DNA of 64,000 nucleotides from Sphaerodactylus townsendi (lineage: Eukaryota), in assembly GCF_021028975.2 (NCBI RefSeq), contig NC_059425.1, positions 24,304,001 through 24,368,000 on the forward strand, written 5' to 3'. Below, piece by piece: positions 3,301 to 47,635 of this stretch; the stretch's first letter is position 1, and each line of letters begins with the position of its first letter. Both the position numbers and the translations under genes were made by a program. The notes under the pieces are model-generated. The model had not been told where the DNA came from. It did no database searches and saw nothing but the letters and a program-made list of their open reading frames with translations.

Positions 3301-5261
3301 AATAACCTTCTCTTTAATTTACAGTCGTCTTTTGTATGGCCATCCTTTCGTTGACTGTCTTGGGTTACACCACAGATGCCTCACAACACTGCCATCATAC
3401 CATGATGAATTTTCGGCTGGCAGCCAATTGCCAAGGTCAAAGTCACAATACAGTTCCCGAAGTTAACCCTTCCATTCAGGTCCTCCTGCTGAATTTTAAC
3501 CTGTTCTCCGCCATCTTGAATTCTACCTTGCCCGAAATGGATTCTCTGCAGATGTTGTCTTTTGGGAAGCAGTTGGGAGGATCCCTTTTTGTTGGAGAGA
3601 GGGCCTTTCAGAATGTGGCTGGTATCACATTCCTGGATCTTGGAGGCAACATGAACATAACACTACACCCCGCTGCTTTTGCAGGCCTGACCAAACTTGA
3701 GGTGTTACTGTTGGATGTGAATGGCTTTGATGAAAAGGTATTGGAAAGAAGATACTTCCAGGATTTGGTTTCCTTGAAGAGACTGGATCTTTCTGGAAAT
3801 CATATCCAGAGGCTAAGGCCTGATCCAACCTTTCAACAGCTTGGAAAGCTGAGCTTCCTGCAGCTGAAGCTCAACAGAATTGAGAGGATTTGTGGGGATG
3901 ACCTGCAACACCTGAAAGGACACCATCTTGCCTTGCTTGACCTGGCTTCTAACCGTTTACGCTACCACCACACCTGTACCAACCCTTTCCACAACATCAC
4001 TCTGGAAACCCTGGACATCTCTTCCAATCCATGGAATGTGATGCAAGTTGAGCAGTTTTTCACAAGCTTAAATGGCACATGGATCCAGAAGCTCAGAATG
4101 CAACACTCAGGGGCCATTGGGAGCTCATTTGGTTTCCGTAACCTGAAGGACATTTCAGTCAGGACCTTCTCTGGGCTTCATGATAGTGGCACCTTCTCTC
4201 TTTACATGTCCCATGGTTTCTTAAATGGAACTCCTCCCTTCTGTCTTCTCGGCCAGCCCTCAGATTCCACATCCTGCACGGAGGTCAATCAGATTACCAA
4301 GATCCATGATGGGGCCTTCATCAAGCTGAATCAACTGCATGTTCTTGATCTATCCAACAACCTTCTTGGGGAGCTGTACACAAAAGCATTGAGAAGTCTG
4401 AGGTCATCACCTCTCCACCATCTCATCCTGAAGTCCAACCACATTGGAATTGTTCAACAGGATGCCCTTGTGGGCCTGGACTTCTTGCAAATCCTTGACT
4501 TACAGGACAATGCTCTCTCACAAGTACCAAAGGGTAAACTCCCATCTCTACAGCGTCTGATGCTAGGGCAGAACAGGATCAAGGACGCTTGGGGCATCGA
4601 GGATCTTAGCCAGAACCTGACACACCTTGACTTGTCCTCCAATCACCTGAGTGACCTGGGGCAGCTCTGGGAGCAGCTAGGGAAGATTCCCTCTTTGCTT
4701 TTTTTGAATCTCTCAAACAACCACTTGGCAAGATGCTTCAGGATCCGGGAAGGCCCCATTCACCTCAGAGAACTGGATCTTTCTCATAACAACCTGGCAG
4801 GTGTTTGGAAAGCAGGACAGTGTATGGGCATCTTCCATCATTTAGAGAGGTTAATGGTCTTGAATCTCAGTTCCAGCAACCTCAAGGCCTTGCCTAAGGG
4901 TCTTTTCCAGGGGCTAGAGTCTCTGCAGACTTTGGACCTCTCCGAGAATCTCCTGCCATTACTTCCAGAGGAAGTATTCCTTGGCCTGCAGTCTTTGCGC
5001 ACCCTCAGCCTCCGTGGGAACCCTATGATGACCCTTACGCCATCCATATTCCAGCCATTGGTACTGTTGCAGACCTTGGACCTGCAAGATTTGACTTTGC
5101 TGTGTCACTGTGGGCTTGCTGACTTGAAGACCTGGTTGCTGACCAATAGCATGGCAGTGAAAAGATCTGCGACAGCAGGAATCCCATGCACTATTACAAC
5201 TCCATATTTCGTACAGGTCTCCTTGTCTGGATTCCTCCATCAAAACTGTGAGGTGTGGTAA
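354..5261 (+). CDS. Soluble TLR5-like LRR protein (TLR5S/TLR5L type), about 660 aa; predicted exons 354-399 and 3325-5261
   Basis: The 641-aa ORF 3336-5261 has many LxxLxLxxN repeats, TLR5-type motifs (LSFGKQL, FLDLGGN, LHPAAFAGL, IGSSFGFRNLKD, MSHGF) and a Cys-containing C-terminal cap, then a stop with no TM or TIR. A phase-1 acceptor (tttacag|3325) matches a phase-1 donor (399|gtgagt), giving the signal-peptide-like MQKFHPRSKRWRAQRVVFCMAILSLTVLGYTTDA. The upstream exon is inferred. Confidence 0.85.
1264..1382 (+). mobile_element. Penelope-like terminal-repeat fragment with a degenerate hammerhead
   Basis: Same family as 48860-49003; 12-bp TSD tgttggcattca (1252-1263, 1383-1394); core reads CTAAAGA...GAAATG. 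Confidence 0.75.
1762..2234. mobile_element. hAT-type non-autonomous DNA transposon
   Basis: TIRs cagtggtggcgaacc / ggttcgccatcacta; 8-bp TSD atctagga. Confidence 0.85.
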
Positions 5262-9763: not shown

Positions 9764-12700
9764 ATGGATCGACACAAGATCCCACGCACCAAAGAACTGG
9801 AATTTGGGGGTATTCTGGGTAAGAACAAAATCTTAGGGTAGGCCAAAGCTGGGAGGCGAACAAAACAGACAAAGAGCGCCAGTGTCTTCTGGGTTTTTTG
9901 GGCCCCTTCAAACCTGGCTGTCTTTTTTGTTTCAGGGGCTGCCTTCCTCCTCATCCTCTTGCCTGCCACTGTCTTTGCCCTGCTGCTGACTTGCAGGACA
10001 GAGCAGGCCAGTCTCCTGAATTTCCCCTTGCCTTTGCCCCTGCTCCATTCCCTGTGGGACCCCAAAGACTTTGCGCTGGTTTTGGCCTGGATAGGCCTGC
10101 AGGCTCTGCTGTATATGCTACCTTTGGGAAAGGTAAGAAGATTCACACCTTTATGTTGCTTAGTCTGGGACGTGTAGGTGCCGTTGCCTGGCTTTGGAAG
10201 GAGGCCGGGCTGATGCCTGAACATAATGGGGAGGGGGTGTTTGATGCAAGTCACTTGACATGTAGCCTACTTTGCAGGGCTGTTTGTGCTAAGTTCTTGA
10301 GAGGGAACTCTTTGAGGGCCTGCCAGGAGGAGATATTCTGCAAGACAGTGCATGGTTGAGGCAGTGCAGTCATACCAGCTACCTGGCCTTCTCTTCTCTC
10401 TCCCTTTCCCCCCTTCTTTTCCTTCCCTTTTCCCTTTCCCATCCCTTCCCTCTTCCTACCTCCTCCCCATTTCCCCCTTTCTTTCACTTTCTTGTTCTGC
10501 TTTTCCTTCTTTGTCCTTTGCCCCTTCCCTTTCTTTCATCAAATAGACTGAAATAAAGGGTAGATGAACTACAGTGATATAGTTGGATTTATTAAATGAG
10601 ATCCCCATTGGAAGTTAGATGAGGAACGATGGGGTGCCAATATTCTGTATACCTTGAAGGGCATATTGACTGAGATGAGTATTTTTAATCATTTTACTAT
10701 TACATTAATTCATGTTGGTATAGTGAATTGTGTATACTGTATGTATGTTATAAGCTGCCCTGAGCCCGGCCTTTGGCAGGAGTAGGCTGGGTTAAAAATG
10801 AAAATAAAGAAAAATAAAATAAAAGAGATGATGTATTGTCGAAGGCTTTCACGGCCGGAATCACTGAGGTGCTGTGTGGTTTCCGGGCTGTATGGCCGTG
10901 TTCTAGCAGCATTCTCTCCTGAAGTTTCGCCTGCATCTGTGGCTGGCATCTTCAGAGGATCTGTGGCTGGCATCTTCAGAGGATCCTCTGAAGATGCCAG
11001 CCACAGATGCAGGTGAAACGTCAGGAGAGAATGCTGCTAGAACATGGCCATACAGCCCGGAAACCACACAGCATCCCAAAAGAGATGATGTTAATGATTC
11101 TGTTCTACAGAAGTAGCCATACTGCTGAAACAGCCCCCCTAATAAAACTCTCCTTTCTTTATCTTGTATATAATTTTTACAGGTCACAGAAGGGACTGTT
11201 CTTCGAGACAAGAGCCGGCTCCAGTACCGTGTGAATGGTGAGTACCCATGGGAAACAGAGCTGATGCTGCAGCTTGTGAGACAAGTTATATGATTCAAGT
11301 GGTGTCTGGAGGTCTCCTGCTATTACCACTCTTTCAGGTGATAGAGATCAGTTAACCTGGAAAATATGGCCACTTTGGAAGGGGAACTTTATGGCATATA
11401 TCCCGACGGAAGTCCCTCCCTAAACCCTGCTCTTCTCAGGCTCCACCCACAAAATCTTGAGGTATTCCCAACCTGGAGCTGGCAACCTTATGTATAATTC
11501 AAGGAGGGGGGGATCAGTTCTGGAGAGAAGCAATATCTAGTGGCTAAAGCAGTGTTTCACAAAAAAGCAGTGTTTCACAAAAAATAGCCATCGAGTAGCT
11601 TGAAACAAATTTACCAGTTTCAGACTAAAAGCACACTGTTGCATTATTTCCAAAGAGCAGCTCCTTAATTAAAAGCTTGGATGAACTGAGATGTGTTGAT
11701 GCCTAAAAGAAAATCACATAAGCACCAGGTGAACCTCAAGGGAAGAGCATTCAAGCCAGGTGCCACTACTGAAAAAGCCCTGTTTCAGGTTGCCATCTGC
11801 CTCACCTCTGAAGGCAGGGGCACTACCAACTCCAGCTTGGTAAATTCCTGGAGATTTGGGGACAGTGCTTAGGAAAGGGCCTCAGTGACTGAGGCACTGT
11901 GTTGTTTATATGTCACCTGGAGGCAAATATCACTTTTATGCCCAAAAATGAAATGTTTGATTTTTTTTTTCAAAAACAGTTAATATTGTTTTCCTATGCC
12001 CCAGTGATTATGGATGCTGGATCAGCACTCTGTCCATACCTGTATCCCAACTAAGGAAGTCCTTTCAGCATTTCATGCTTGGAACTCCCTTATGACCATA
12101 ACAAGGACCACTGTCTATCCCAGGGATGGCGAACCTTTTTGAGACCAAGTGCCCAAACTGTAACCCAAAACCCACTTAGTTATCGCAAAGTGCCAACATG
12201 GCAATTTAACCTGAATACTGAGGTTTTGGTTTAGAAAAAACGGTTGGCTCAGAGGTGCACATTACTCGGGAGTAAGCTTGGTGAAGCAACCATGCAATGC
12301 TTCGAATGGGTGAATCATGATCCTAAGAGTGTTTACTCAGAAGAAACCCCATTGCCAGCAATCGAGCTTACTCCCAGGTAAAGGATTGTGCCCAGGCCAG
12401 CCTAGATGTGTGTGTGGGGATGTGGGGGTGTGATTCCCGCCCCCATGAACTGTGTGCACGTGTGCCCACAGAAAGGGCTCTGAGTGCCACCTCTGGCACC
12501 CGTGCCATAGGTTCGCCACCGCTGGTCTATCCCTTTCCCACTATTATACCTTGCTACAGATATAATTGTTTGCCATGTTGAAGAATTTGCCTTGTTCTGA
12601 GTCAGATCACTGGTCTATCAAAGATCACCCTTGTCTGTTTGAACTGGCAGCAAAAGGCAGCATCATGGGTTCGCATCTGTGCCTGAGGCAGCCTCCGGAC

Positions 12701-15700
12701 GGTCAGTTCTGCTTCTCACTAAACCCCCTTTTCCCCTTGGCAGGGCTCCATGCCATGTGGATCACAGCACTGGTGGTGGGGGTCGGCATGGCTGCAGGGC
12801 TGCGCCTCAGTTACATACATGACCATTTATTGCAACTTGCCTTCTCTGCATCTGTTATTGCTTTTGGGCTCAGCGTCCTCCTCTACATCAAAGCCCTGCT
12901 TGCTCCTGGGACCGCGCTGGCTCCAGGTGGGAATTCAGGTGAGCTCTACGTTCCACAGCATCTCATGTGTCAGTTCAAGGGACAGAAGTGTCCACATGAA
13001 CTCCAACTGGAAACACATACTTCTCTGCATCGCACTCAGCAAACAATCGCCTGCTGGTGATCCCTGGCCCAAAAAAGGTCCAGCTGACCTCAGCCAAGGC
13101 CAGGGCATTTTCAGCCTTGGACACACAGCCTGGTGGAACTCTCTGTCAGATGAGAACTCAAGGGCAGTAGAATGCAAAGGAACCAGAGAGGTGTAGTCAT
13201 TAAGAGCAGGTGGTCTCTAACGTGGAGAACTAGGTTTGATTCCCCACTCCTTCATGTGAACAGCAGAGTCCGATCTGGTGAACTGGATTTGTTTCCTAAC
13301 TCTTCCACATGAAGCCTGCTGAGTGACCTTGGGCTAGTCACAATTCTCTCTCTTCAGCCCCGCCTACCTCACAAGGTGTCTATTGAAGGGAGAGGAAGGG
13401 AAGGAGTTTGTAAGCTGCTTTAAAACTCCTTAGAGTTGAGAAAGGTGGGGTCTAAAACGAAACTCTTCTTTGCCATTTCTATGCAGAGTCAAATATACAC
13501 GGGAAAAGAACAGAGCAACTCTTTCACTATAGCAATGTTTTCTTGCTCTGCAGACTTAATGCGATTCATTGGAATCTTAATGCGATTCATTGCATTAATG
13601 CGATTCACTGCAGATTTAATGCGATTCATTGGAAATGACATCTCCATTCTCCGGTGTGCCCAAATGCAGAATAACTGAATTTGCTAATGAATTTCTCATT
13701 TTGTGGTTTCACATTGGGGCCTCTCTTCTGAAGCGCATGTGTGCTTGATTTTGATACACAGAGTCTTGGAGGGCTGCAGCAGGATTTCCTGGGAGCCTGA
13801 AATGTTCTCCTTGTTTTTGAGAAGAATCCCCTTCTGCTCACATTTTCTCATTCCATGGGGACAACAAAAAAAAACCCTGCCAAGATTGCTAAATTAGAAG
13901 TGCACTGAAGCATTGTTGATCACCAGGGTTTTTTCTGCCTTTCCCTCCCCAGGAAACCCCATTTATGACTTCTTCATGGGCCATGAGCTGAACCCCCGCG
14001 TTGGTACCTTTGACCTCAAGTTTTTCTGTGAGCTGCGCCCAGGTCTCCTTGGCTGGGTAGGTATCTCTGTCCTGGAGGTGGTAGAAGAAAAAGCGGGAGG
14101 GCTTATATAACGAAGGGATGATTCACCTATTGCAGGGGTCTGCAACCTGCGGCTCTCCAGATGTTCATGGACTACAAATCCCATCAAGCCCTGCCCTTGC
14201 ATGGCCAATGCTGGCGGATGCTGGCATGATAGAATTGATAGATTATGATCCATGGTTGCTGAGAAACCGCCAGGTGAACCTCGAACTGCTGTGCAGCCTC
14301 CCCTTGTCCCATGTGGCTACCCTCAGGACTTTGGACCAGGAATCCACTGCCCTCAGGACTTTGGACCAGGAATCCTGCCCCCACCCCAGGATATATGGCC
14401 CATGCAGAAAGGGCCTTAGTTTTGATGGTGCAAAACTGAAAAGTGTGTAACTTGGGTTTTAAAAAAACCTCCACTGCTTTGAAATAATGAAAAACACGAT
14501 CTCTTTGCTAAAGCCTTTGGGGTGTTAATTGAACAATGCAATAGTGCACTGAAGTGTGTTCTTGTTAAATTGCCAACAGTTGCTTTACTTAAATTTGCTG
14601 TGAAGGGTCCTAGGTTCAAGGAATAGCAATCTGGTGATGATGGGAGGGTTGTAGCAGAAAATAAATGGATGAGGAGCGATCAGGGCAGTGACCTAAAAAC
14701 ACCTTATGGTTGAAGCTTTTCTCATTTCTGTTGCATTTTAGGCCCTTATCAACATGGGTATGTTAGTGAAGGAGACGGAGCTGAGGGGTAGTCCTTCCTT
14801 GGCCATGATTCTTGTTAATGGCTTCCAGCTTCTCTATGTAGTAGACTCCTTTTGGAATGAGGTAGGTTCAATGCAATGAGAGATCCATACTGGGCTGGAA
14901 AAGTTTGGTGAAAGTTCATTTGTGGTAATTTCTGTCTCCTCATCCCCCCCAGCCCAATTATTTGTGAAAACATAAAGTTTGAAGGCCTAGGCTGCACTCT
15001 CATTAGTTTCAGAAAAGCCAGGGATTTTACTGGGAGATTGATTGACTGATCAATGGATTATGAGATTTTTATACCCCCCCCTTTTCACGCTCAGGCCGGT
15101 TTCCCACCTCCAATATAACAATATATAATACAATAAATAGTTTAAAACTTACAATGTAAAATATAAGTTTAAAATTGAAATAGCATTGGACTTCTGCAGG
15201 CAATTTGTACATCTATACTTGGTCCCTCTTCCTATTATAAGCTTTAATATTTATATTGGATGAGACTCCAGTAGAGAGGTTAATGAAGAGAAAAGAATAG
15301 GTAAGGTGGAGAAGAAAGAAAGGAAGAAATGTAAGGGGGGGAAGGGAAGAGAAAGGGGGCCCAATGACAGTCATACTGTAGTTGCCTCAACCGTACACCT
15401 GATGGAACAGCTCTGCCTTACAAGCCCTGTGGAATTGCATTAAATCCTACAGGGCTCTGGTCTCCCCACCCAGCATTCCAACAGGTAGGGCCAGGGAGAA
15501 AAAGTCCCCCGACCTTGGAGGAATGAGCAGTCATTGCAAGGACTATCTACTTTGATTGACAACAGCTTCTGGGCAGAAGTCTTTTGTTAACTGGAGATGC
15601 CCCGGATTGAACCTGGGCCCTTCTGAACAGAAAGCAAGTGATTTTCCACTGAGCCACAGTTCCACTCAACATTCCTTGTCTCTTTCTCAAGGAGGCCATC

Positions 15701-22730: not shown

Positions 22731-24010
22731 TCAATCCAATTCTTCTATCAAGGTCTTTTTTTGGGGGGAGGCACTTTGGCCCCCCACATCTTCTCCAGCT
22801 CCTGGGTGACTGCTCCCACCTCCTTGATCGCATCCAGGTGGGCCTTGTATTCTCTCTGCACCTCCAAAGCCAGGAGGGTGAGCTCCCCTTCATTGTCGTT
22901 CACCCAGGACAAAAGAAAGTCGCACTTTTTCTTTGCAGAGAACAGCCTGGGTTGATCCTGGGCAGGCACCCGCCTCTTCCCCTTGCTCAGCAGCCGGGAT
23001 AGATGGGCGAGGGCGGCTAAGCTGTACCCCTTTTGCTTGGCTTGGCATTCTCCCATTAAGATCTGGGCCACTGCTGCCATCACCCCGGCGTTCCCCAGGA
23101 GGCATTCGGGGTATCGCCCGCGCGGTAACTTAGCCTGCAAGAGCCGCTTGTAAGGCCTCCCGCCGTGAGATCCGAAGCCCTGCCCTTTAGGGCCCCAGAG
23201 ACTGAGAGGGTCCAGAACCGTTTCACAAAACTCAGGCAGCAGCTGGGCCTCTTCCACGTCGCCGTTGTAAAGCGCCAGGGAATAGGCATAGGCGCACAGC
23301 ACGTTGGGCACCTGGAAGCGCACCAGGGGTGAGACGGGCAAACGGGTCAAGCTGCTCAGAGGAGGGATGGTAGTGGGCACCGGAGGCGCTGAGGTCGAGG
23401 CACCCGCCGGCTGTGCAGGGTTTGGACCACTTGCAGGGATCTCTTGCAAATGCACCGGAGTCTGAGCGTGTTGCACGGCTGCAGTGCCCTGGGAGGATTC
23501 CGGTTGTTGCAAAGGGGCGTGGAGGGTCCCGGGCCCTGTAGGGGCCTCCCCCAATTCTTGAATCAGCATTGCACCCCGGTCGCTCCCCGTCCACCATGGC
23601 TTCCAAAGGGGCAGGAGAGACGAGATCTCCCCACTGTCCAGCAATCGCTGGAAACGCTTTCTTTGCTCCAGGCTCAGCTGCTCCCACAGCTCCTCGAGTT
23701 CTGTCTGCTCCAAACTGGGGTCGAGGCCTAGCTGGAGATCCGCATCCCCGGGCTCGCGCAACTCCTGCAGCCTAAGAAGGGCCTCCCTCAAGCGGCGTTG
23801 CGAGGCCGGGTCCTCCCGCTGACCCTGGAGCAGGAGTTGCAACTCCCGGCGCTGAAAGTCCTGGGCGCAGGAGCCGTGTTCGCGGTAGCAAGGCACGGAG
23901 CAAAAAAAACGTAGAGTGGCAGCGTGCTGGGCAGAGTGTGAGGGGACTACCTTAGCCAGGCACAGCCCGCAGCAAGGGTCATCACCGGGATTCGAACCGG
24001 CGGCTTCCAT
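22731..24010 (-). CDS. ZNHIT2: Zinc finger HIT domain-containing protein 2 (single coding exon)
   Basis: ATG at 24010 (MEAAGSNPGDDPCCGLC...FCSVPCYREHGSCAQDF); motifs LLPLWKPWW, SPLVRFQVPNVLCAYAYSLALYNGD, KKCDFLLSWVN. Removing one A from a homopolymer restores the C-terminus KKTLIEELD* with the stop at 22731. Located between TM7SF2 and FAU. Confidence 0.92.
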
Positions 24011-24314
24011 GCTCCGTAACAGACGGCCGGGAGAGTTCGGGGATTTCCGCCAATTGTCGGTTAAGTCCGTCTCTGAAAACGATGAATTGGTAATTTCCGT
24101 CTTGCCTTCGTTTTTACCCGGACTGAGTGCCGGTGCGTTTGTCAGGCCTAGTGGTGAATCACAGCGGGCTAGTTGAAGGCTAATTGAGGCCGGTGCCCTG
24201 GCAGGGAACCTGGGACGCTCGAGTGTCGTTCGGCGCAAACTTTGGCAGTTGTTAATCGGTCGCTTTGTTGTGGCGTCATTTTGAGGCAGAACGCGCTACA
24301 AAGCTCACTTCCAA

Positions 24315-34600: not shown

Positions 34601-36589
34601 TTTTGGAGACAAAACATGAGAAGAAATTTGTCTAACTTGCTCTCTTCTCTGCATCCACTAAACTGTTTGGGAGGGGGGGTTGCCAAGAGGCAGACAAAAA
34701 AAAATGTTTCCCTTCAATCTGGCAGCCCTTAAGCAAAAGTGAGATGGTTTCTTCTCTCTGCCCAGCCCCTGCAAGGGCTCCTTAGCCATTCATTCACAAA
34801 GCAATCTTGCTGCTGGGCTCTGAGGAGTTTTGCCACCATCGAAGATTTGGTCTGGTCCAGGGGTAGGGAACCTGCGGCTCTCCAGATGTTCAGGAACTAC
34901 AATTCCCATCAGCCCCTACCAGCGGCATGACAGACAGAGGTGGTCCTAGTATCTCAGGCTGCAAGTCCCAGACCTCTGATCAAAAGCATGAAAGTCACCA
35001 GAGAAAACTCTAAGGTGTCTATCACGGGGGGACCCAGGCCCTTGAATTTTTAGTGTCCCCAGGAGCCAATCTGCCTTTGGCGACCTGGTTTTCTGTACAG
35101 ATATCCTTTCCATGTCACGACTCTCCACACTGCAGCCTTGATATATTGCGTGACGGCATTCAATGGGAATTTTTGGGTTGTTTTGTGGAAGACCCAGATG
35201 ACACGTAAAGCCAGCAGAAGACGCAGAAAAGGTTTACAAGCTCAGAAATACATAAAATATATGTATAATATTGTATAATAGCAACATATCTAAATATACA
35301 CAATTTCTTAGGGGTCATTGTTAGGACATTAGGAATGTATATAGAAGGATGAGTTTTTAAACCACATACCTTCTATTTACTATTTGAGAAAGGGGCTCAG
35401 CTGAGCAAACCATGAGATGCTGGTCATTTGAATTCTGCAAACAGCAGCAGGCCTTTTTTTGCTTTGATGAGTAAAAATGGGCACGGGGGAAGGGAACTTC
35501 TTCCTGCATTAGAGCCATCTACAGCCCCATCCTAAGACCCTGATGCTTGTGGAGCTATGAACTGGTGTCCAAGGCCTGCCCAACTCAGGACAATTTTCTG
35601 AAACATGTTGCCAGGGTTCACACAGCCCAGCAGCAGCACCAGTATCCTTGGAAACACCAGGAATGTCCACCACCACAAGGTGACTTCCCTGTGACAGGAA
35701 GAGAGAAGCAGAGCATGCTGGGAAGGCCAGCCTCCTGCCCACCACCACCCACAGAAGGCCAAACTCTCCCTCCAGCGCTGGGGTTTGAGTGGGAGGAGCA
35801 TCTTTTTGCCAGGCAAATGACTTACAGACTCTTAAGCAACACAATAGAAACGCAAGGGAGGCCTGGACTCAGGTTCTACTAGGAAGGCCCAAGTAAGGAT
35901 TTTGGTTTATGCTCCCCCTCATCTGTCAGGAGTGCTTTGATTGTTCCTGCATTGCAGGGGGTTGGACTTGATGGCCCTTGTGATCTCTGCCAACTCTATG
36001 ATTCTATGATCTACCATCTCCCTTATGTGGCATTGCCAATATCCAGGTAGGACCTGGAGGTAGCCTGGAATTACAATGCATACATTTCCATGTAGAAAGT
36101 AGCTCATTTGGGAGGTGGCCTTGAAACCTTTGTACCCTGCCCTCCCCTGGTTCCATCCCAAATTTCCAACCTGAAGTGTGTAATCTTGTCTATTCATTGC
36201 CACCTTACCTCCTGTTCATCCCAGCAGCCGTTGTGCCCCATTCCACGTACAAACCACACCCCTGACAAAATCCCACTCTGTGCCAGTGTCAGATTGACAC
36301 GTGCCTTATAATAGCAGGAGACCACTGTGGATTTGGGTGGGCATATCTCCTGACACATCCAAAGCCCCTAGGACAGGCCCTAAAACTAAAGTAACATCTT
36401 TAAAGAGCCAGAAATACAAGCCCCAAGAAGCACTTCTGGTTTGATCCACTGTGCATCAGCATCACCTCTCTCTTTTGTTTTCCTTGTGTCTCTCTGCCCC
36501 ACATCTGCCTTACATCTACTCTTTTTTCATAGCCATTTGAGAAAGGCATCTTTTCAGAGCTGAAGACGACTGAGTAGAAGAAGAAGGAG

Positions 36590-39500
36590 ATGGAAGAACA
36601 GGACCCAGAAGGAGTGGGACGAGGCAAGAGAGCAAGGAAAGCCCCCCGGCCCATCCAAGCTGGGAGTGGTCTTGAATTCTGGGAGAGAGGTGTGCCGGAT
36701 ATCTGGAATCAAGAACCCCTGAACGTGGAAGTACTTTGCAGACGCTTCCGGCAGTTCTGCTACCATGATGCTGATGTTCCCCGAGAAGTTTGCAGTCAGC
36801 TTCATGGACTTTGCAAACACTGGCTGAAGCCAGAGAGGCACTCCAAGAAGCAGATCCTGGACCTGGTGATCCTGGAGCAGTTCCTGACCATCCTGCCCCA
36901 AGAAATGCAGTACTGGGTTAGAGGATGCAGTCCAGAGACCAGTTCCCAAGCGGTGGCCCTGGCAGAGGGTTTCCTCCTGAGTCAAGCTGAGGAGAAGAGG
37001 CAGGCAGAACAGGTGAGGGCTTTTCTTTCCACTTCTTCTAGGGAATTTCTCATCCCTCCAGATAATTACCCAGGGTTGAAGGAAAACCCTACTAGGTCTG
37101 CTAATAGATAGGTGCATAGTCTGGGAATGGGGCAGGATGCATTCCTCAGTGTCTTTCATTCTGTCTCTTACCTGTCTCCCTCACTGTTACTTCAGAGATG
37201 TGGTCCATCCATGAAGATCAAAACTACATTCTCTGAGAGGGAAAGAGCTCAGTTGGAGGAAGGGCAGCATGTCCACGACCAGGAACTTGCCCAAAATGCC
37301 CTCTCACGCGGTAAGGACTCATTGTTCCAGGACGGGATTGAAACACCCAGTGAATTTGATGGGTAGAGAGTTCTGGTCAGGAAAAAAGTGAAATGCTTCT
37401 TCACACAACTGGTGACACTTGCTGTTCAGCAGTTGTGATGCGCATAAAAGGGGATTAGACAAATTCATGGAAGCAGTTCCACACATGGGTTACAATATTT
37501 ACATTGCTCCTTTTTAATTAGAGGGACTCAAGGTGGCTCAGCAGAAAAATCTCAGCCAAGCTCTTCAGTCTTGTGAATAAGCAGAGCCTCTCCCACAACG
37601 TACCAGAAAGTTTTACAAGTCTTTTTGAGTGTACATAGGGCAAAGATTTCACAGCCCTGGGAACGGAGTGCATGAAGAATGATTTACACAGCAAACAATA
37701 GGAAGTGGAAACTAATACTTTTTCTTCCATTTTTCCCTCCCTCACAGGCAGTGAAGAGAGAGTGTTGATCCCTTCTCTTTGTGGAGGTGTGAAAACAGCT
37801 GCGGCACCTCCAGCCAAGGTAGGAGAGATGAGCAGGGGACAGCCTGGTTCCCCATCTCTTTCTCAGGCAAGCTTTTCTCCTGCAGTTGGTGCTGAAGGGC
37901 AAGAGGCTGTAAATGCTACTCCTGATAATAATGTGAGCTCTCCATAATGCAGCCTCCCAGAGTACCCTCTTTCAGCATCCTATCTCTTCCTGATATGTCC
38001 TCTGACCAGCGAATCTGCTTTTTCTTACAGCCTCTGGTTTCCTTTGGGGAGGTGGCCGTGTATTTCAGAGAGGCAGAATGGGCATTACTGGATCCAGACC
38101 AAAGAGCTCTCTACAAGAGCGTCATGCTGGAGAACTTCAAGAGTGTGGCCTCTCTGGGTAAGGAGCTTTCATAGGCACACATTTCTGCCTTTGGGATGAG
38201 GCATGAATCAAAATCTTGAACAGCAATGCATTGTGTTGAGGCTTGTTCCATAACTTGCTCCCTTTTGGAGGCCTCGAGATGGCAGCGAAAGCAATACTTA
38301 GCATGGCCAAATAGAGTGACCCAAGCCACAAGGTTTGCCCAGGACAACTGAGGGCAGTGTTGTGGCCATCACCCAAGCCAGAGAGTGTGTCCTGACCGGA
38401 AGCCAATGGGGGACTCTAAGGCCCTCAGGAGGACTCTGAAAGGAGCCACATCCTAATTTCTCAGTGAACAACCATAAGAAAACATTTATCCTCTGGGAGT
38501 AGAGTGATGCCCTCTGACTGTGGTCTGAGAGGGGAGAAAAGGGTCTTAATTCCCGACTTCTTCACATGAGCTGGGTGATCTTGGGCCAATCCCAGTTCTC
38601 TTAGAACTCTCTCAGCCCCACCTACCTCAGAAGGTGCCTGTTGTGGGGAGGGAAAGGAATATGATTTGTAAGCTACCTTGAGGCTCATTAGGGTTCAGGA
38701 AAACAGGGTATAAAAATCTTCTCTTCTACTTGTCCTCTTTAATCATCAATAACAGAGAGTCAAAAGAGCTGTGTGGCAAGTCAAATGTGAATGGTGGAGG
38801 AAGGATTTCTTGCCACTTTGCCCTCTGGGATAAGGTGTAACCAGCAGATCAGTTGTGAGGAAAGCAATTCCGATAAAGAAAACATTCACCCATAAATGAG
38901 CAGTTCCTAATGGGTGGTGCCTAGTGCTGATTGGACTTGCCTAGTGCTGATTGGACCTTTTTCTTTCTTCCAGAAGCACAAGTAGAGGAGATAGTTGGAG
39001 TATTCCAGGGATTCTGTGTGGAAAAAGCCAAGGATCAAGATTCAAAAGGAAAGTTGGAGGATGGAGACAGGCCACAGAGTCAGGAGGAAAGCCATGCAGA
39101 CCAGAGAAGGGAGAAGCCCATTCTGTCCCTCGGAGGAGGCTTTTGTGAAGTCCCAGTCCAAGAAGTAAGATCAACCACATCAAACAAGAATGAAGCCATC
39201 CATGCTAACCAGGGAATCCTCTCCAGGCAGAATGAAAATGTGGCCTTTAGAAAGACCTTCAGTAAGAACATCAGTCTTATTTCCGAGAGACAAATTCCCT
39301 CTGGAGAGAAACTGTACGATTGTATGAAGTGCGCAAAGACCTTCAGTCAGAAATCAGATCTTTCTTCACATATAAGAATTCACTCAGGTGAGGAAGGGTA
39401 TAAATAGTTAGTTTGCAAACCAAGCCATTCTAATTCAGCAGATTTTAATGTCCTTTTAAATTGTATATTAATATACACTTTAATGTACTTCAGCAAAAAA

Positions 39501-40886
39501 GCCACTGAAGTGTTTTGTCTGTGGATAGAGCTTTAAGGAAAAATCAGATTTCCTGATGTGGGTGCTAACAGGATCCCTATTTTTATTACAGCAAGAGATG
39601 AGCAGTGGACAGAGAGCGATGAGCTATTGCCAGAGACAGTGAAGAATGGAGATTTGAAAGGAAACTTTAGTAATCAAAGCAAACTGGAAAAACAGGCAGG
39701 AAGTCCCATGGCTGAGAAGAGGGATGAATCCATTCCCAGCCAAGGATGGGATTGCCATGAAGAAATCCACACAGTAGAGGAAAGATATAAGTGCTTGGAG
39801 TGTAGAATGACCTTCTCAGATCACAGCCAGTATGAAATCCATTTGCAAATACACAGTGGAAAGAAGACCCATCAATGTTTGGAGTGTGGCATGACTTTCC
39901 TTTGCAGAGCAAAGTTCCTGAGGCATCAAAGAACACATCAAGAAGAGAAACCTTATAATTCCTCAGACTGGGGGAAGAGCTTTTCACAGAAATCAGATTT
40001 TTTTCAACACCAAAAGACTCATTCAGGAAAGAAGGCATTAATCTGCTTAGAGAGGAAAGTTACCTTTTCTGGTAGAAGAAAGGGTAATGTACTTATTCAA
40101 AAACACAGTATAATGAGAGCACAAAAATGCTTTCAGTGCGGAAAGTTCTTCAGCTACAGATCAAAGCTCCTTGTGCACCAAAGAACCCACACAGGAGAGA
40201 AACCTTTTGAATGCCCAGAGTGTCGGAAAAGATTCAGTCAGAGAAGCACTCTTCAACGGCATCAAAGAACTCACACAAATGAGAGACCTTTTGAATGCCC
40301 AGAGTGTGGAAAGAGATTCAACTACAATAGCAGTCTTCATCAGCATCAGAGAACTCACACAAAAGAGAGACCTTTTGAATGCGCACAGTGTGGAAAGGGA
40401 TTCAATCGGAGTAGCACTCTTCAGCAGCATCAGAGAACTCACACAAATGAGAGACCTTTTGAATGCTCAGAGTGTGGAAAGAGATTTAATGACAATAGCA
40501 GTCTTCAAAGGCATCAAAGAATTCACACAAAAGAGAGACCTTTTGAATGCCCAGAGTGTGGAAAGAGATTCAGTCAGAGTAGCAGTCTTAAACAGCATCA
40601 GAGAACTCACACAAAAGAGAGACCTTTTGAATGCGCACAGTGTGGAAAGGGATTCAATCGGAGTAGCACTCTTCAACAGCATCAGAGAACTCACACAAAT
40701 GAAAGACCTTTTGAATGCCCAGAGTGTGGAAAGAGATTCAACTACAATAGCGGTCTTCAACAGCATCAGAGAACTCACACAAAAGAGAGACATTTTGAAT
40801 GCCCAGAGTGTGGAAAGAGATTCAGTCAGAGCAGCATTCTTCAACAGCATAAAACAACTCACACAAAGGAGAGACCTTTTGAATGA
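36590..40886 (+). CDS. SCAN-KRAB-C2H2 zinc finger protein, about 814 aa; exons 36590-37012, 37196-37310, 37748-37818, 38031-38157, 38974-39387, 39592-40886
   Basis: SCAN ([53 protein letters not shown]), KRAB-A ([34 protein letters not shown]), 12 intact C2H2 fingers plus degenerate ones; all junctions are GT-AG and phase-compatible. Confidence 0.9.
38515..38730 (+). mobile_element. Diverged tRNA-derived SINE
   Basis: agctgggtgatcttgggcc...cccacctacctcag...ggtataaaaatcttctctt. Confidence 0.6.
40190..40886 (+). repeat. 84-bp tandem zinc-finger repeat array (about 8 units)
   Basis: Near-identical gagagaccttttgaatgc...cagagtgtggaaagagattc...catcagagaactcacac units. Confidence 0.9.
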
Positions 40887-42619
40887 TCTGAGTGTGAAAA
40901 GAAAACCAGAGTGGTGTTCTTCAACAACATCAAAGAGCACAGGGGAGGACCCTTATATATGCTTGGAATGTGGAAAGAGATTCAATCAGAGGGGTGCTGT
41001 TCAACAGCATTGAAAGATCCACACAGGGGAGAAACTTTTTGAGTGCTCAGAATATGGAAAGAGATTTAGTCAGTCTCACAATCTGGTCCAACACAGGCAA
41101 ACCTTTTCAAGTGCTCGGTATAAGACCCTTGTCTCCTCCTCAGCTGAGACACCTCAGTTTGATCCCCCATCTTTTCGTCGTTGTTTTTTTAAGAGTACCC
41201 CATATAAATCCTGAAGTAGAATGGGCATATCTTTGGGACAGGTTTGAGAGAGCCCATCTGCCTGCCATGGGCAGAGAACATTCCATCACAGAAGCAGGAG
41301 GTCACCAGGGTTTTTATATACCTCTCTCTCAGTTCCGTGGCCTGGGAACAGCAATATATCTTCTTCAATAGTATTTCATCAAACCAAAACAAGATCATGT
41401 CCAGTTAATGGGCAATCATTTCTGAGCCATCAAAGCAGCCTTCACATCTGAGCAACTCAGACACATCCAATCAATTCAGGCACACTGGGTGCTGTGAAAA
41501 TCTCCCCACATGGGAATGTCAGGGGTCACGTTCAACTCTTTCCACTGAATTTTGAGGGCAGTTACTTCAGATTGTTCAGTCAAATTCAACTTTGATTTTT
41601 TTGAACCAATCATGATCTTAGGAAAGACTGGTCCCATGTCAAACAATGGGATTATCCTCATAAAAGGGGAAACCCAGGTATGTGAAAAGGGTTTTCCAGC
41701 CCCCCCCCCCCCTTATTACCTGGATACCCCTGCAACTACTTTGGTGGAAAAAACTCCTTCCAAGCTATCTGTCTCTCTCCCTGGTTGGACTTCTGCTCCA
41801 TGTTCTGTCAGCAATACTCAGCTTCTCACTCACCTAGGAACAACTAATATTGTACTCTCTCTTTATCCTTGCTTCCCCCGCCCCCTTCTTAGTTTTTGCA
41901 TGTGCACTGGATAGGACTTAGGGAATTAGCTCTCAGGTACTTAATGTAGATTCTCTACTATTTTATTTCTATTCTCCTTTGTATCCAATAAAATTAAAAG
42001 TATTATTTCACCTTTTTTGTAATTTTATTTTTGGATAGCCCTACTGAGATCTACTCTTAGAAGAACTGATGTTTGAAATGTGGATTTTGATTAAAGTCAT
42101 CCTCATATTTTTAAGACCTCAAGTTTGTTAAATACATATAGTAGAGAATATATCAAAATTTCCATTTTCCTGTATTTGATAATACACAGTGAAATTGAAC
42201 CTGGATAACTTCAACCCCCCCCCCCCCTTAAAAAAGTCTCTAATCTGCTATTCATGATAGCCATCCCTCTGCAAGCATGAAACTTTCTGCTTGAGAACTT
42301 GGTTACTCTTGTGCTGTAACTGGTGCAAGTACAGGGTTTTCTGGAGTGGGAAGTTCGCCAGACTGGTTGGCCTGCTATAATGATGCTATTTCTTAGGTAG
42401 TGAGTTGTGATATTGAGTTTTTTTGTAGAGCTAGTGTTAGGAGTGGATCGTATTAGGCTTAGTCTAGGATTTGTTTTTGTTTTTTAGGTTAGTTATTGGG
42501 CTAGGTTTGCGACACTAGCACTGCTGTACTTGGTTTAGGGTTAGTCTGGGCCTTTATATATATTTTCGTAGTTTGAGGTGTAAAAGGGAGGAGTCGCCAT
42601 CTCTTGTTATTTTTATTGC

Positions 42620-42900
42620 TGACTAGTGATGCCATGATTACTGTTGTTTATTCATGTTCCTTGTTATTGGATGTGATTATTGGTGTTATTGATGCTTAAT
42701 TCTGTGCACATTTATAACGTTATGATTATTGATGTTATTTATATTGCCTATTTGTGATGTTATAATTACTGTTTTATCTAAGCTATTATTGTGATGTTAT
42801 GATTTCTGATGTTTATCTATGCTGTTATTGTGATGTTTACTGTTATTATGGTGATAGTATTGTTGATGTTTTGTTGTTTATGATTGTTGTTGTTTGCCGT
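42620..42900. repeat. Low-complexity TTA/GTT-rich tract
   Basis: Degenerate tgatgtt/tattg units. Confidence 0.65.
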
Positions 42901-43050
42901 CCTGAACCCTATGGGGGAGGGCTGGGTATAAATCAAAATGAATGAATGAATAAATAAATAAATATGCTACTTCGTGTTTGATTTAGGTCTGATGCTACAA
43001 AAATGACATATTAAAGGTGAGGAGAGCTGTGGCTGTGAGCTAGAGCACTT

Positions 43051-45008
43051 AAGAACATAAGAACAAGCCAGCTGGATCAGACCAAAGTCCATCTAGTCTA
43101 GCTCTCTGCTACTCGCAGTGGCCCACCAGGTGCCTTTGGGAGCTCACATGTAGGATGTGAACGCAATGGCCTTCTGCGGCTGTTGCTCCCGATCACCTGG
43201 TCTGTTAAGGCATTTGCAATCTCAGATCAAAGAGGATCAAGATTGGTAGCCAGAGATCGACTTCTCCTCCATAAATCTGTCCAAGCCCCTTTTAAAGCTA
43301 TCCAGGTTAGTGGCCATCACCACCTCCTGTGGCAGCATATTCCAAACACCAATCACACGTTGCGTGAAGTGGTGTTTCCTTTTATTAGTCCTAATTCTTC
43401 CCCCCAGCATTTTCAATGAATGCCCCCTGGTTCTAGTATTGTGAGAAAGAGAGAAAAATTTCTCTCTGTCAACATTTTCTACCCCATGCATAATTTTGTA
43501 GACTTCAATCATATCCCCCCTCAGCCGCCTCCTCTCCAAACTAAAGAGTCCCAAACGCTGCAGCCTCTCCTCATAGGGAGGGTGCTCCAGTCCCTCAATC
43601 ATCCTTGTTGCCCTTCTCTGCACTTTTTCTATCTCCTCAATATCCTTTTTGAGATGCGGCGACCAGAACTGGACACAGTACTCCAAGTGCGGTCGCACCA
43701 CTGCTTTATATAAGGGCATGACAATCTTTGCAGTTTTATTATCAATTCCTTTTCTAATGATCCCCAGCATAGAGTTTGCCTTTTTCATAGCTGCCATGCA
43801 TTGAGTTGACATTCCCATGGAACTATCAACTAAGACGCCTAAATCCCTTTCCTGGTCTGTGACTGATAGCACTGACCCCTGTAGCGTGTATGTGAAGTTT
43901 GGATTTTTGCCCCTATGTGCATCACTTTACATTTTGCTACATTGAACTGCATTTGCCATTTCTGAGCCCACTCACCTAATTTATCAAGGTCCGCTTAGAG
44001 CTCTTCGCAATCCTTTGTGGTTCTCACCACCCTACATAATTTGGTATCATCTGCAAACTTGGCCACCAGCTACCCACCCTACTTCCAGGTCATTTATGTA
44101 TAGGTTAAAGAGCACTGGTCCCAAAACGGATCCTTGGGGGACACCACTCCCGACATCTCTCCATTGTGAGAACTTCCCATTTACACCCACTCTTTGTTTT
44201 CTTGTTTCTCAACCAGTTTTTTAATCCATAGGAGGACTTCCCCTCTTATTCCTTCATTGCTGAGTTTTCTCAACAGTCTCTGGTGAGGAACTTTGTCAAA
44301 AGCCTTTTGGAAATCCAAGTAGACAATGTCCACCGGTTCACCCTGTCCACATGCCTGTTTACACCCTCAAAGAACTCTAGTAAGTTTGTAAGACAGGATT
44401 TGCCTCTGCAAAAGCCATGCTGACTCTTTCTCAGCAGGTCTTGCTTTTCTACATGTTTTATAATTTTATCTTTAATGATAGATTCTACTAATTTACCAGG
44501 AACAGATGTCAAACTGACTGGCCTGTAATTTCCCGGGTCCCCCCTAGATCCTTTCTTAAAGATTGGTGTGACATTGGCCATCTTCCAGTCTTCAGGGATG
44601 GAGCCTGATTTCAGGGATAAGTTGCATATTAAAGTGAGAAGATCAGCAATTTCATGCTTGAGCTCTTTAAGAACTCTTGGGTGAATGCAATCTGGGCCAG
44701 GGGATTTGGTAACATTTAGTTTATCAATGGCTGCCAGAACTTCTTCCTTGTCTACCACTATCTTCGCTAGTTCCTCGGATTCGCCTCCTAAGAAGCTTGG
44801 TTCAGGTGCAGGAATGTTCCTCACCTCCTCTTGGGTGAAGACAGATGCAAAGAATTCATTCAGCTTCTCTGCAATCTCCCTGCCATCTTTTAGCACACCC
44901 TTTGTTCCTTTGTCATCTAACGGGCCTACCGCTTCCCTTGCTGGCTTCCTGCTTTTGATGTACTTGAAGAACTGTTTGTTGCTGGTCTTGATGTTCGCAG
45001 CCATGCGT
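43051..45008 (-). mobile_element. 5'-truncated, relatively young CR1 LINE (about 2 kb of ORF2 RT)
   Basis: ORFs 44270-45004 (KSPGPDCIHPRVLKEL, PGNYRPVSLTSV, SQHGFCRGKSCLTNLLEFF) and 43237-43872 (RPHLEYCVQFWSP, FSLERRRLRGDMIEVYK); 3' tail ttatgttctt; only a few frameshifts. Confidence 0.95.
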
Positions 45009-45414
45009 TCCTCATTGTATGCATGCAGAATGTTCCATGTTCATTCTTTGGGATCTCCAATGAAGACTGACCTCAAACTGAAACCCTGGAGAGTCACTGT
45101 AAATCAGAAGATACTGGCCTTGGTAGACAAATGGGAGACAGTTTGTGGGAGCAAAACCGAGGCAGTAAAGACACAGTAAAAACCAGAAGAGCAAGACAGA
45201 AAAACTCCAACCCACCCACCTACCCGCCTATCTTACCTTTGGGAGATCAGGGAGATTTTTTCACATTTCTAATTTTGCTCCATCCCATTAAAATAGTCCC
45301 AATATTGCCTGCCCCCCACCCCCGGCTGCGGGAAACTGTCATCAATTTCATGTCGCGTCACTTTTGTCTGTCCTTTTGCAAGACACCTTTTCACTCTTGG
45401 GTTCCTTGGAGTGG

Positions 45415-46222
45415 GGGGATGCGCTCTAAGCAAGGAGTAGGTAAGGGGGGGTTCTCGGGTTCAACCCCCCATTACATGTCTGAAGAGCCGCCCCCCCATT
45501 TGTGGGGTTTTTTTTTGTATTTTTAGTGTTTTGTTTTTGGCCTGCCGGGGGCACAGTTTTTAGACTAGCAGCACCAACATTTCAGGGATTTGTTGGGAGA
45601 CTCTCCTGATGATTTACCCAGGTTTGGTGAGCTTGGTTCAGGGGGTCCAAAATTATGGACTTCCAAAAACATTGCCCCCATCCCCCATTGTTTCCAATGG
45701 GAACTAATAGAAGATGGCAGCTACACCTTTGAGGGTCCATAACTTTGGACCCCCTGAACCAAACCTCACCAAACCTGGGAGGTATAATCAGGAGAGTCTC
45801 TTACTGATAATCCACCCAAAAACAGCATCACTTTCAATGTTGTTTTAACTAGGGACCCCAGATTCTCCCTTTAAGGTGGATTTAAAAGGAGAATCTGGGC
45901 TCTCTAGTTCAAACACCATTGAAAGTGATGCTGTTTGGGGGTGGATCCCAGCATCACAGTGGTTGCCCATGGGGGGAACTCAGATTTTGCACCAGGCTCC
46001 AGTTTCCCTAGCTACGCCTCTGCCCAGAGGGGAGGGCAGAAGGGGCTGCCAGCTTCTGGCTGGGAGCCCAGTTGGTGGGAGGGGGCGGGGCAGGTGAGTC
46101 TGCTGTCCCCGGCCTCGGAGAGCTGCTTTTATAAGCACTGAGGCTGGGGGTGGGGCTTGGGGAGGCGTGGCCATACACCCTGAACCCCCTTCTCCATAAA
46201 AAATCTATACCTACATCCCTAG
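45415..46222. mobile_element. Composite or nested non-autonomous DNA transposon remnants
   Basis: Internal inverted repeats (ccaggtttggtgag.ttggttcagggggtccaaa / tttggaccccctgaaccaaacctcaccaaacctgg); terminus ctagctacgcctctg at 46022 matches 32180 in inverse. Confidence 0.55.
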
Positions 46223-47494
46223 CTCTAAGGGTTAAAAAAAGTTACAGAGAGAGGGAGGCACATTCCAAACTCCCGCCCCGGAGAACTTAAGGTTCCTTGA
46301 GATGGCCCTGGCCCCAAATATAGCTGGGGGGAAGGGGTGCTGCAATGCCAAGGAGAAAGGAGAAGGGCATGCTTCTGAAAAATGGTTTTTTTCTTAGCCC
46401 CCCCCTCCCCCCCCGCTCTTGCTCCAGCATTTGTGGGGCATTCCAGCACCTCCCATGGTTTCCCTGGCTTTTCAGCCACCTTTTCCAAATCTTTGAAGTT
46501 GATGTTCCCAAACATACAAGCCTCCACCTTAGATCAGGGGTGTTCAACTCATTTGTTACGAGGGTTGCAGATGACATAAATGTGACTTGATCGGGCCTTG
46601 GCTGGACATGGTTGGCCCTGCTGGAAGGGCTGTCTGAGCTGGTGAGTCCAGAATAGCAAAGGGGGAGAGGGTTGGCATCAGTAGGGGGGCGTGGCTCCTC
46701 AGCTGACGACCCTGCAAGTGGGCTCCCCAAGCCAGATTGGTACAGGAAGGCAGTCGCTTGCTGAGAGAAATCCAGAGCGGGGTCAAGTAGATGCCTGGTC
46801 TGGGGAGCTCACAGTGGGCCTCCGGGCACGATTGACACCCCTGCCTTTGCTTGTCTCCCCTCCCCAGTTCTTCCTCTTTCTGTTTGCAGTCCTTCTGTAA
46901 ATCGTAGTGTGTTTTTCTGCTCAACTGGGAATGCAGAAGCTCTTTTCGTTCCAAGCCCCTACAGATCATTAACCACAGTTCCTGGTGTAGAGAATGCAGG
47001 GAAGAGACTTGATCCTTCTCTGGCACATGTCTTAATTGGAGCCCCAGGCTCACTATCCAGGAGGAAGAGATGGCAGAGGGCTGAGGTGGTGGAGAAGATA
47101 GCATGAAATTTGGCATAGCTTAATGTGTAGATTCAAAGTAGCTTCTCTTTAGATTTCCTTCCATTTTTGAATTAATTATATTGTCATTAAAACTCAAAAC
47201 AACATACGTACAGAAAAAACAGACAGAACGTTAGATTCTACTCCAGTAACACCTCAGAGTCTAACAAGATTTTCAGGGTATAAACTTTTGAGAATCAAAG
47301 CTCTCTTCGTCAGACCCGTCTAAACACGTGTTGGTTTCTAAGGTGCTATCGGACTCGAATCTAACTGTTCTGCTGCAGACTAACAGGGCTACCAGCTGAA
47401 ACATAATGGATGAAAAGAGTGTCTTCGCAGCTTTTCACCATGGACATGTTAATGCCCAGAGCGGCCAATTCTACTTTTATTGCACCCTGCTTCC

Positions 47495-47635
47495 GATTTT
47501 AACCGGAAGTTCACCCAATATATTACCCTGGTATTTTTTTCTATCTCTATGGTGCATTTTCCTTCTCTCTCCCCGCCTTCCCTCCCCGCCTTTATTCCCG
47601 TCGGCCACCGCGTGAAGGGGAAAGATGGCGGCCCT
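47495..47635 (+). promoter_or_regulatory. MRPL49: MRPL49 promoter
   Basis: ETS/GABP-like CCGGAAGT (~47503-47510), GC boxes ccccgcc, and YY1-like AAGATGGCGGCC overlapping the ATG. Confidence 0.7.

Follow-up and report, generated by a model that had tools for sequence, protein, structure and literature searches.

A short palindromic insertion in an intron of TM7SF2, in a gecko of the genus Sphaerodactylus, raises two questions: how two copies of the 5′ end of a Penelope-like element (PLE) came to stand head-to-head between one pair of target site duplications (TSDs), and whether the hammerhead motifs that they carry matter to the host gene. TM7SF2, a cholesterol-synthesis gene, was located in the window (the whole 64-kb stretch of DNA analysed) by a protein search with exon 2, which returned proteins named TM7SF2, the top three being from geckos at 91, 89, and 83%. 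Alignment of the best gecko protein placed coding exons at 9764-9818, 9936-10132, 11183-11237, and 12745-12939, and the later exons gave a Pfam match to ERG4_ERG24. Based on this exon mapping, the insert lies in coding intron 2 (introns are numbered here by coding exons), as the original prediction had it, and the distance to the exon 3 acceptor, first put at about 100 nt, measures 91 nt from the TSD. The insert comprises 243 bases between the TSDs and is arranged as follows, with the flanking exons given for context.

9936 to 10132, plus strand: TM7SF2 coding exon 2, from the protein search and alignment.
10821 to 10834, no strand: left TSD, of which the last 4 nt also match the family continuation (+116 to +119).
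10835 to 10865, minus strand: PLE tail at this end only, spanning about +85 to +115 counted from the Poseidon ATG, from window BLAST and the published definition of the tail.
10835 to 10960, minus strand: copy of the Poseidon 5′ end that includes the tail, -11 to +115, with its ATG at 10949, from BLAST and comparison by eye.
10959 to 10982, minus strand: 24-bp duplication, a second partial copy (-9 to +15) flanked by short ATC(TG) microhomology, from the repeat search and family consensus.
10982 to 10985, no strand: self-complementary GATC common to both copies, the head-to-head junction, read from the sequence.
10983 to 11077, plus strand: tail-less inverted copy, -11 to +84, with its ATG at 10994, from BLAST; +82 to +85 is a recurrent end in the family (loose ends at 10868).
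11078 to 11091, no strand: right TSD, from the repeat search.
11183 to 11237, plus strand: TM7SF2 coding exon 3, from the protein alignment, its acceptor 91 nt past the right TSD.

The two copies of the TSD (AAAAGAGATGATGT, 10821-10834 and 11078-11091) are identical at 14 of 14 positions and lie exactly at the element ends, so the perfect 14-bp duplication first reported stands. As 4 nt of the left TSD and about 1 nt of the right one also match the Poseidon family's own continuation, 9-10 nt are independent of the element; the tailed minus-strand copy reaches +119 if the 4-nt overlap is counted. A repeat search defined inverted arms of 97 nt (10865-10961 and 10982-11078) that are 95% complementary and enclose a perfect inner palindrome of 25 nt with no spacer. 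Of 95 sites, 5 differ between the arms: three pair as G-U wobbles, two are mismatched, and none is a compensatory change. Two details of the original prediction need correction: the internal duplication is 24 bp long in two repeat searches, not 23 bp, and the two inverted repeats are real but not both terminal, the tail of about 30 nt (10835-10865) falling outside them. When folded, 10821-11190 has a z-score of -19, and none of 100 shuffled sequences folds equally well.

The predicted Penelope origin is borne out, and the element belongs to the Poseidon clade: 106 of 127 nt are identical, without gaps, to the Poseidon_Ac RNA template (-9 to +118; compared by eye), and the cleavage site lies 26 nt past the ATG, as described for that element. 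Poseidon_Ac (PAc) of Anolis carolinensis, as described in Frangieh et al. 2024 (PMC11167929), has the same ATG at the start of stem II, the same tailed end at +111 to +118, and an AT-rich target. The present insert differs in residing in a gecko and in belonging to a distinct subfamily, and the accessible text of that paper describes no head-to-head insertions. Open reading frames in the remnant reach at most 28-39 codons, and the reverse transcriptase (RT) and GIY-YIG domains are absent from it. A peptide search for the subfamily's RT or GIY-YIG coding sequence gave no matches, and none of 8 candidates passed; a second search gave 13 matches, none with an RT or endonuclease (EN) Pfam domain and most of them short translations of related elements or chance similarities. 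The insert is very probably a non-functional Poseidon remnant. A Sphaerodactylus gene model named caskin-1-like ends in a Poseidon N-terminal peptide, which could be annotation contamination or an exonisation of the same family.

The locus is one of very many fragments of Poseidon, a retrotransposon common in reptiles. BLAST inside the 64-kb window found three further loci (55839-55997, 48877-49000, and 1291-1375), and none of the three has the full structure of the TM7SF2 insert. The copy at 55839-55997 is near-identical and tailed; it lies on the minus strand, and its hammerhead is intact (G-C, ACGU, and GUC). A clear TSD was looked for there and none was found. It also carries a short inverted piece (55968-55997), which reverses direction at -11/-12, where there are about 3 nt of filler, and extends to near +19. 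The other two (1271-1380 and 48859-49004 at their full extent) form a second subfamily, about 80% identical to the TM7SF2 insert and with a GUU triplet; both stop at a common 5′ boundary at -27, and one is tailed and the other tail-less.

We surveyed the family in contigs of three DNA runs (X3, X4, and X5, from organisms A, B, and C) and one RNA run (X21, organism C), four of 23 candidate runs; the two with the best matches were set aside because they may derive from the source of the window itself. Matches in 36,216-47,997 contigs per DNA run point to a dispersed family of many copies. Each DNA run has 178-190 contigs that pass from the tail-less end of the family sequence into AT-rich flank, and 90-127 contigs at 10963 that indicate many copies extending upstream of -14. 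Joints numbered 417 in all; 14 of the 15 shown run from the antisense into the sense arm, at varied positions, and no empty-site joint is among those 15. We read the varied joints as other head-to-head loci, although their sides are short (18-41 nt) and chimeric contigs are possible, and their positions are biased by a reference that stops at -14. Fractions of variants inside the element are likewise skewed, as a read can match either arm. Few of the family sequences that cover position 10923 have the A found there. A T>A change at 10976 occurs in 36 of 89 RNA reads (X21) and is nearly absent from the DNA contigs; it is probably one expressed family copy with a change of core A6.

Contigs that span a junction and reach unique flank were found for the left side in organism A (X3), both sides in B (X4), and the right side in C (X5), at about the depth of the flanks. 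The three related organisms share the insertion, which is likely older than their split. Their flanks diverge from the window at 4 of 444, 12 of 390, and 13 of 487 positions (about 1-3%), and the differences between the arms, similar to this divergence and without compensatory change, are as neutral decay would give.

How did the two 5′ ends become joined? The Poseidon protein is reported to cut and extend both strands at AT-rich DNA, and to begin reverse transcription at two sites, one at +111 to +118 and the other separated from it by the tail of 30-40 nt (PMC11167929); from this tail length we infer a second start at +84. Set against these two starts, the spans of the copies describe two ends placed head-to-head, one with the tail and one without. 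The left end lies within the published in vitro start window of +111 to +118, the tail measures about 31-35 nt against the published 30-40, and the target flank is AT-rich, with ATT adjoining the minus-strand nick. Both arms, as well as the copy at 55839, turn at -11/-12 at their 5′ side. By the usual definitions of promoter motifs, we read in the consensus of upstream loose ends (agreement 0.47-0.66) a run resembling a TATA box near -43 and, near -13, an initiator-like YYANWYY, and a similar pair about 32 nt apart in the published stretch of the Poseidon_Ac template. The shared 5′ boundaries and these promoter-like motifs together suggest run-off at the 5′ end of the RNA. An intron 3′ splice site as the cause of the -11 boundary was discarded, as neither the second subfamily nor PAc has the AG.

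That the insert ends at the tailed and tail-less sites, while its arms stop near the predicted transcription start, suggests priming from both target nicks. In such a model the element's protein would nick both strands of the target with a stagger of 14 bp. Reverse transcription would be primed from the plus-strand 3′ end at about +115/119 and from the minus-strand 3′ end at about +84/85. Each cDNA would run to the 5′ end of the element RNA near -12, one of them would jump back 24 nt on short microhomology and recopy, and the two cDNA 3′ ends would then anneal at GATC and be filled in. The 24-bp duplication would follow from a 5-nt microhomology in the upstream consensus, and the zero-spacer centre from the family's own GATC. 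Among the models of formation, we put dual priming at somewhat less than an even chance. Its most specific form, in which a dimeric enzyme primes both nicks at two internal RNA starts and the cDNAs run off at the transcription start and anneal by their ends, is offered more tentatively. The primer overlaps of only 4 nt and 1 nt and the many family copies that extend upstream of -14 speak against dual priming, and its simple form does not explain why, in the 55839 copy, the inverted piece stops near +19 rather than at +84 or +115.

That short inverted piece fits more readily with a single priming event and a subsequent fold-back, self-priming on an antisense template, or switch to the nascent strand, a course of events that we regard as possible if on balance doubtful. 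Arkhipova et al. 2013 (PMC3846280) read head-to-head junction palindromes as self-priming on an antisense template, and the inner palindrome, 100% matched over 25 nt, agrees with this; the perfect centre and the 24-bp duplication may then have arisen by later quasi-palindrome repair. However, a simple snap-back cannot yield a centre without spacer, a single priming event does not by itself account for an inverted arm at the tail-less end with the other arm at the tailed end, and the protein is described as extending both strands in vitro. We consider it improbable that the palindrome was copied in one piece from a master locus as a non-autonomous unit of the retrozyme or MITE kind. Its small size, inverted arms, and TSD would suit such a unit, and retrozymes are reported to derive from the pLTRs of PLEs, but the 14 head-to-head joints shown do not share one junction position, none of the 3 other copies in the window has the full structure, and there is no tandem array. 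Non-LTR retrozymes, moreover, consist of head-to-tail units with sense ribozymes, whereas the insert is head-to-head with one full motif per strand. A close parallel to dual priming is L1 twin priming, in which both target nicks prime cDNA and the inversion is joined by microhomology; there the cDNAs copy different parts of one RNA, whereas those of the insert would begin at two internal starts and cover one and the same 5′ stretch. A search by title and abstract opening, with subscription literature mostly outside it, found no paper that proposed dual priming for PLEs.

The layout itself is not special, as an inverted pLTR with a tail and a TSD is the typical PLE insertion, described by Craig et al. 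2021 (PMC8557442) for PLEs and by Schostak et al. 2008 (PMC2377424) for Drosophila. According to these accounts and PMC3846280, a typical EN+ insertion has the same inverted 5′ copy, a 30-40-bp tail at one end, a junction palindrome, and a TSD. The TM7SF2 insert differs in being reduced to the two pLTR ends, in its TSD of 14 bp against 8-10 bp, and in its short duplicated piece, which is 3′-truncated and not the usual 5′-truncated tandem. As a locus it matters little, since neither the layout nor the idea of editing (see below) is new. It is, however, a clean example for an open question, the origin of the tandem and inverted arrangement of PLEs being described as undefined in Craig et al. 2021 (PMC8557442). 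If dual priming is correct, the ends of such insertions would track two RT starts and the junction the transcription start, which would tie the in vitro findings on Poseidon to genomic layout. A single mechanism would then cover the mass of solo copies of about 100-130 nt as well as the head-to-head repeat with its junction palindrome and its tail on one side. Thousands of lizard loci make the model testable.

The second question concerns the ribozyme. With hammerhead positions in the conventional numbering, a descriptor for the minimal type-I hammerhead was built from the text of Cervera and de la Pena. It matched at three places in the 64-kb window (C3 at 10988 on the plus strand and at 10955 and 55959 on the minus strand), against a mean of 0.02 in random 64-kb sequences (n=100). 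Two of the three lie in the insert.

10984 to 11026, plus strand: minimal type-I hammerhead on the pre-mRNA strand, with an intact core, the ACGU palindrome, a GUC site (cleavage after C11022), and a G10.1-U11.1 wobble.
10917 to 10959, minus strand: minimal hammerhead, antisense in the TM7SF2 pre-mRNA, with G16.2 changed to U, giving a UUC triplet, and the ACGU palindrome lost.

The CUGANGA, GAAA, and NUH core elements with helices I and II are present in both arms, in agreement with the claim of a core in each repeat, and the descriptor recovers the sense motif with its palindrome and its GUC ending at C11022 as originally described. The predicted double hammerhead does not hold at the RNA level: with the second motif on the other strand, a single hammerhead is left on the pre-mRNA, and a dimer in cis is impossible. 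The palindrome for the dimer helix III is kept in the sense copy and lost in the antisense copy, and neither strand offers a partner in cis. Only the antisense copy retains the G10.1-C11.1 pair; the G-U of the sense copy is a CpG-type change that is common in the family according to the contig survey. Minimal PLE hammerheads (Cervera and de la Pena 2014, PMC4209133) share with these motifs the type I form, a 4-bp helix I, an extra base after position 9, a palindromic 15.1-16.1, and the absence of helix III; by comparison, our sense copy lacks the G10.1-C11.1 pair and our antisense copy the palindrome. Pairs of hammerheads on opposite strands, 100-700 bp apart, are reported in the same work.

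A covariance-model search had been proposed as a check, with the absence of a hit to count against the ribozyme. Rfam gave no match at the gathering score across the window; at E up to 10 around the element it gave 28 matches, none a hammerhead, and the isolated sense motif drew a single chance match, also not a hammerhead. Since Rfam misses the intact copy at 55959 as well at the gathering score, the proposed refutation is not valid here.

Folding agrees with the predicted long hairpin that buries its own ribozyme. Adopting the ribozyme fold would cost 72.5 kcal/mol in the full context, 35.6 with only the inner palindrome present, and about 5 in isolation, by energies that omit tertiary contacts, dimers, and proteins. 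During transcription the antisense arm would be made first and could capture the ribozyme as it emerges. The hammerhead of the pre-mRNA is therefore predicted to be silent in its context, and with the ribozyme predicted to be locked in a long hairpin, an ordinary passenger is likely. Taken together, we consider it quite probable that the locus is a short Poseidon-type insertion with two head-to-head 5′ ends between TSDs, likely a neutral passenger, its hammerhead silenced by the predicted hairpin.

The helix of about 95 bp in the TM7SF2 pre-mRNA could serve as a bystander substrate of ADAR; the original suggestion to this effect is plausible as a model, and it is already known for the family. 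Over 40,000 hyper-edited sites are reported for Penelope in a lizard, and palindromic repeats that fold on themselves are described as strong targets of ADAR (Porath et al. 2017, PMC5625713); the TM7SF2 hairpin resembles such repeats. If dual priming is correct, the insertion process would itself build self-folding hairpins, and this would lead to the heavy editing of lizard Penelope. In the RNA run of organism C, sampled at about 6 of every 100 reads, depth was nil on exon 3 and most unique intron bins, and no pile-up of read ends was listed. At the family level, A>G changes occupied 10 places in RNA and 8 in DNA of this organism, under a 90% cut that hyper-edited reads would fail.

An effect on splicing is not indicated, as the hairpin ends about 55 nt before the putative branch region, which by its motif we take to lie near 11135-11143, and folding predicts that the element forms about 1.5 base pairs on average with 11120-11245, the branch and acceptor region. 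Separately, a C-to-T change at 11014 makes a donor-like CAG/GTGAAA (11010-11018) inside the hairpin, with no evidence of its use. Co-option by the host, in which the hairpin would gate a self-cleaving ribozyme or tune exon 3 splicing and ADAR editing could unlock it, seems to us highly unlikely. The catalytic core and GUC are intact on the pre-mRNA strand, the insert lies 91 nt from the acceptor, and its presence in three organisms also fits weak selection. Nevertheless, the sense hammerhead has the G10.1-U11.1 wobble and no second sense copy for a dimer in cis, the penalty of 72 kcal/mol opposes its fold, pairing with the branch and acceptor region is slight (about 1.5 bp), and the arms show no compensatory changes. 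The family's ribozyme is also reported to cleave only with its protein and to be dispensable for insertion in vitro (PMC11167929), and minimal PLE hammerheads are described as inactive as monomers and weak even as dimers. We give equally little credence to the production of defined small RNAs, miRNA-like or endo-siRNA, from the hairpin. The helix is long and near-perfect, and it draws sub-threshold matches to miRNA models; these matches, however, are all below the gathering score (28 of 28) and reflect pairing rather than sequence, as a generic hairpin would, and small-RNA reads would be inseparable from those of thousands of copies. A helix of about 95 bp is also longer than a typical pre-miRNA.

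Several other features were observed in the window. A 647-codon open reading frame rich in leucine-rich repeats lies upstream of TM7SF2, at 3318-5261 on the plus strand, and a 515-codon open reading frame at 22748-24295 on the minus strand had no Pfam match. A further repeat in TM7SF2 intron 3 (11293-11496) showed raised depth in all three DNA runs. The introns of TM7SF2 also contain an exact 18-bp tandem duplication and a repeat with a period of about 20 bp (11546-11584 and 13556-13634).
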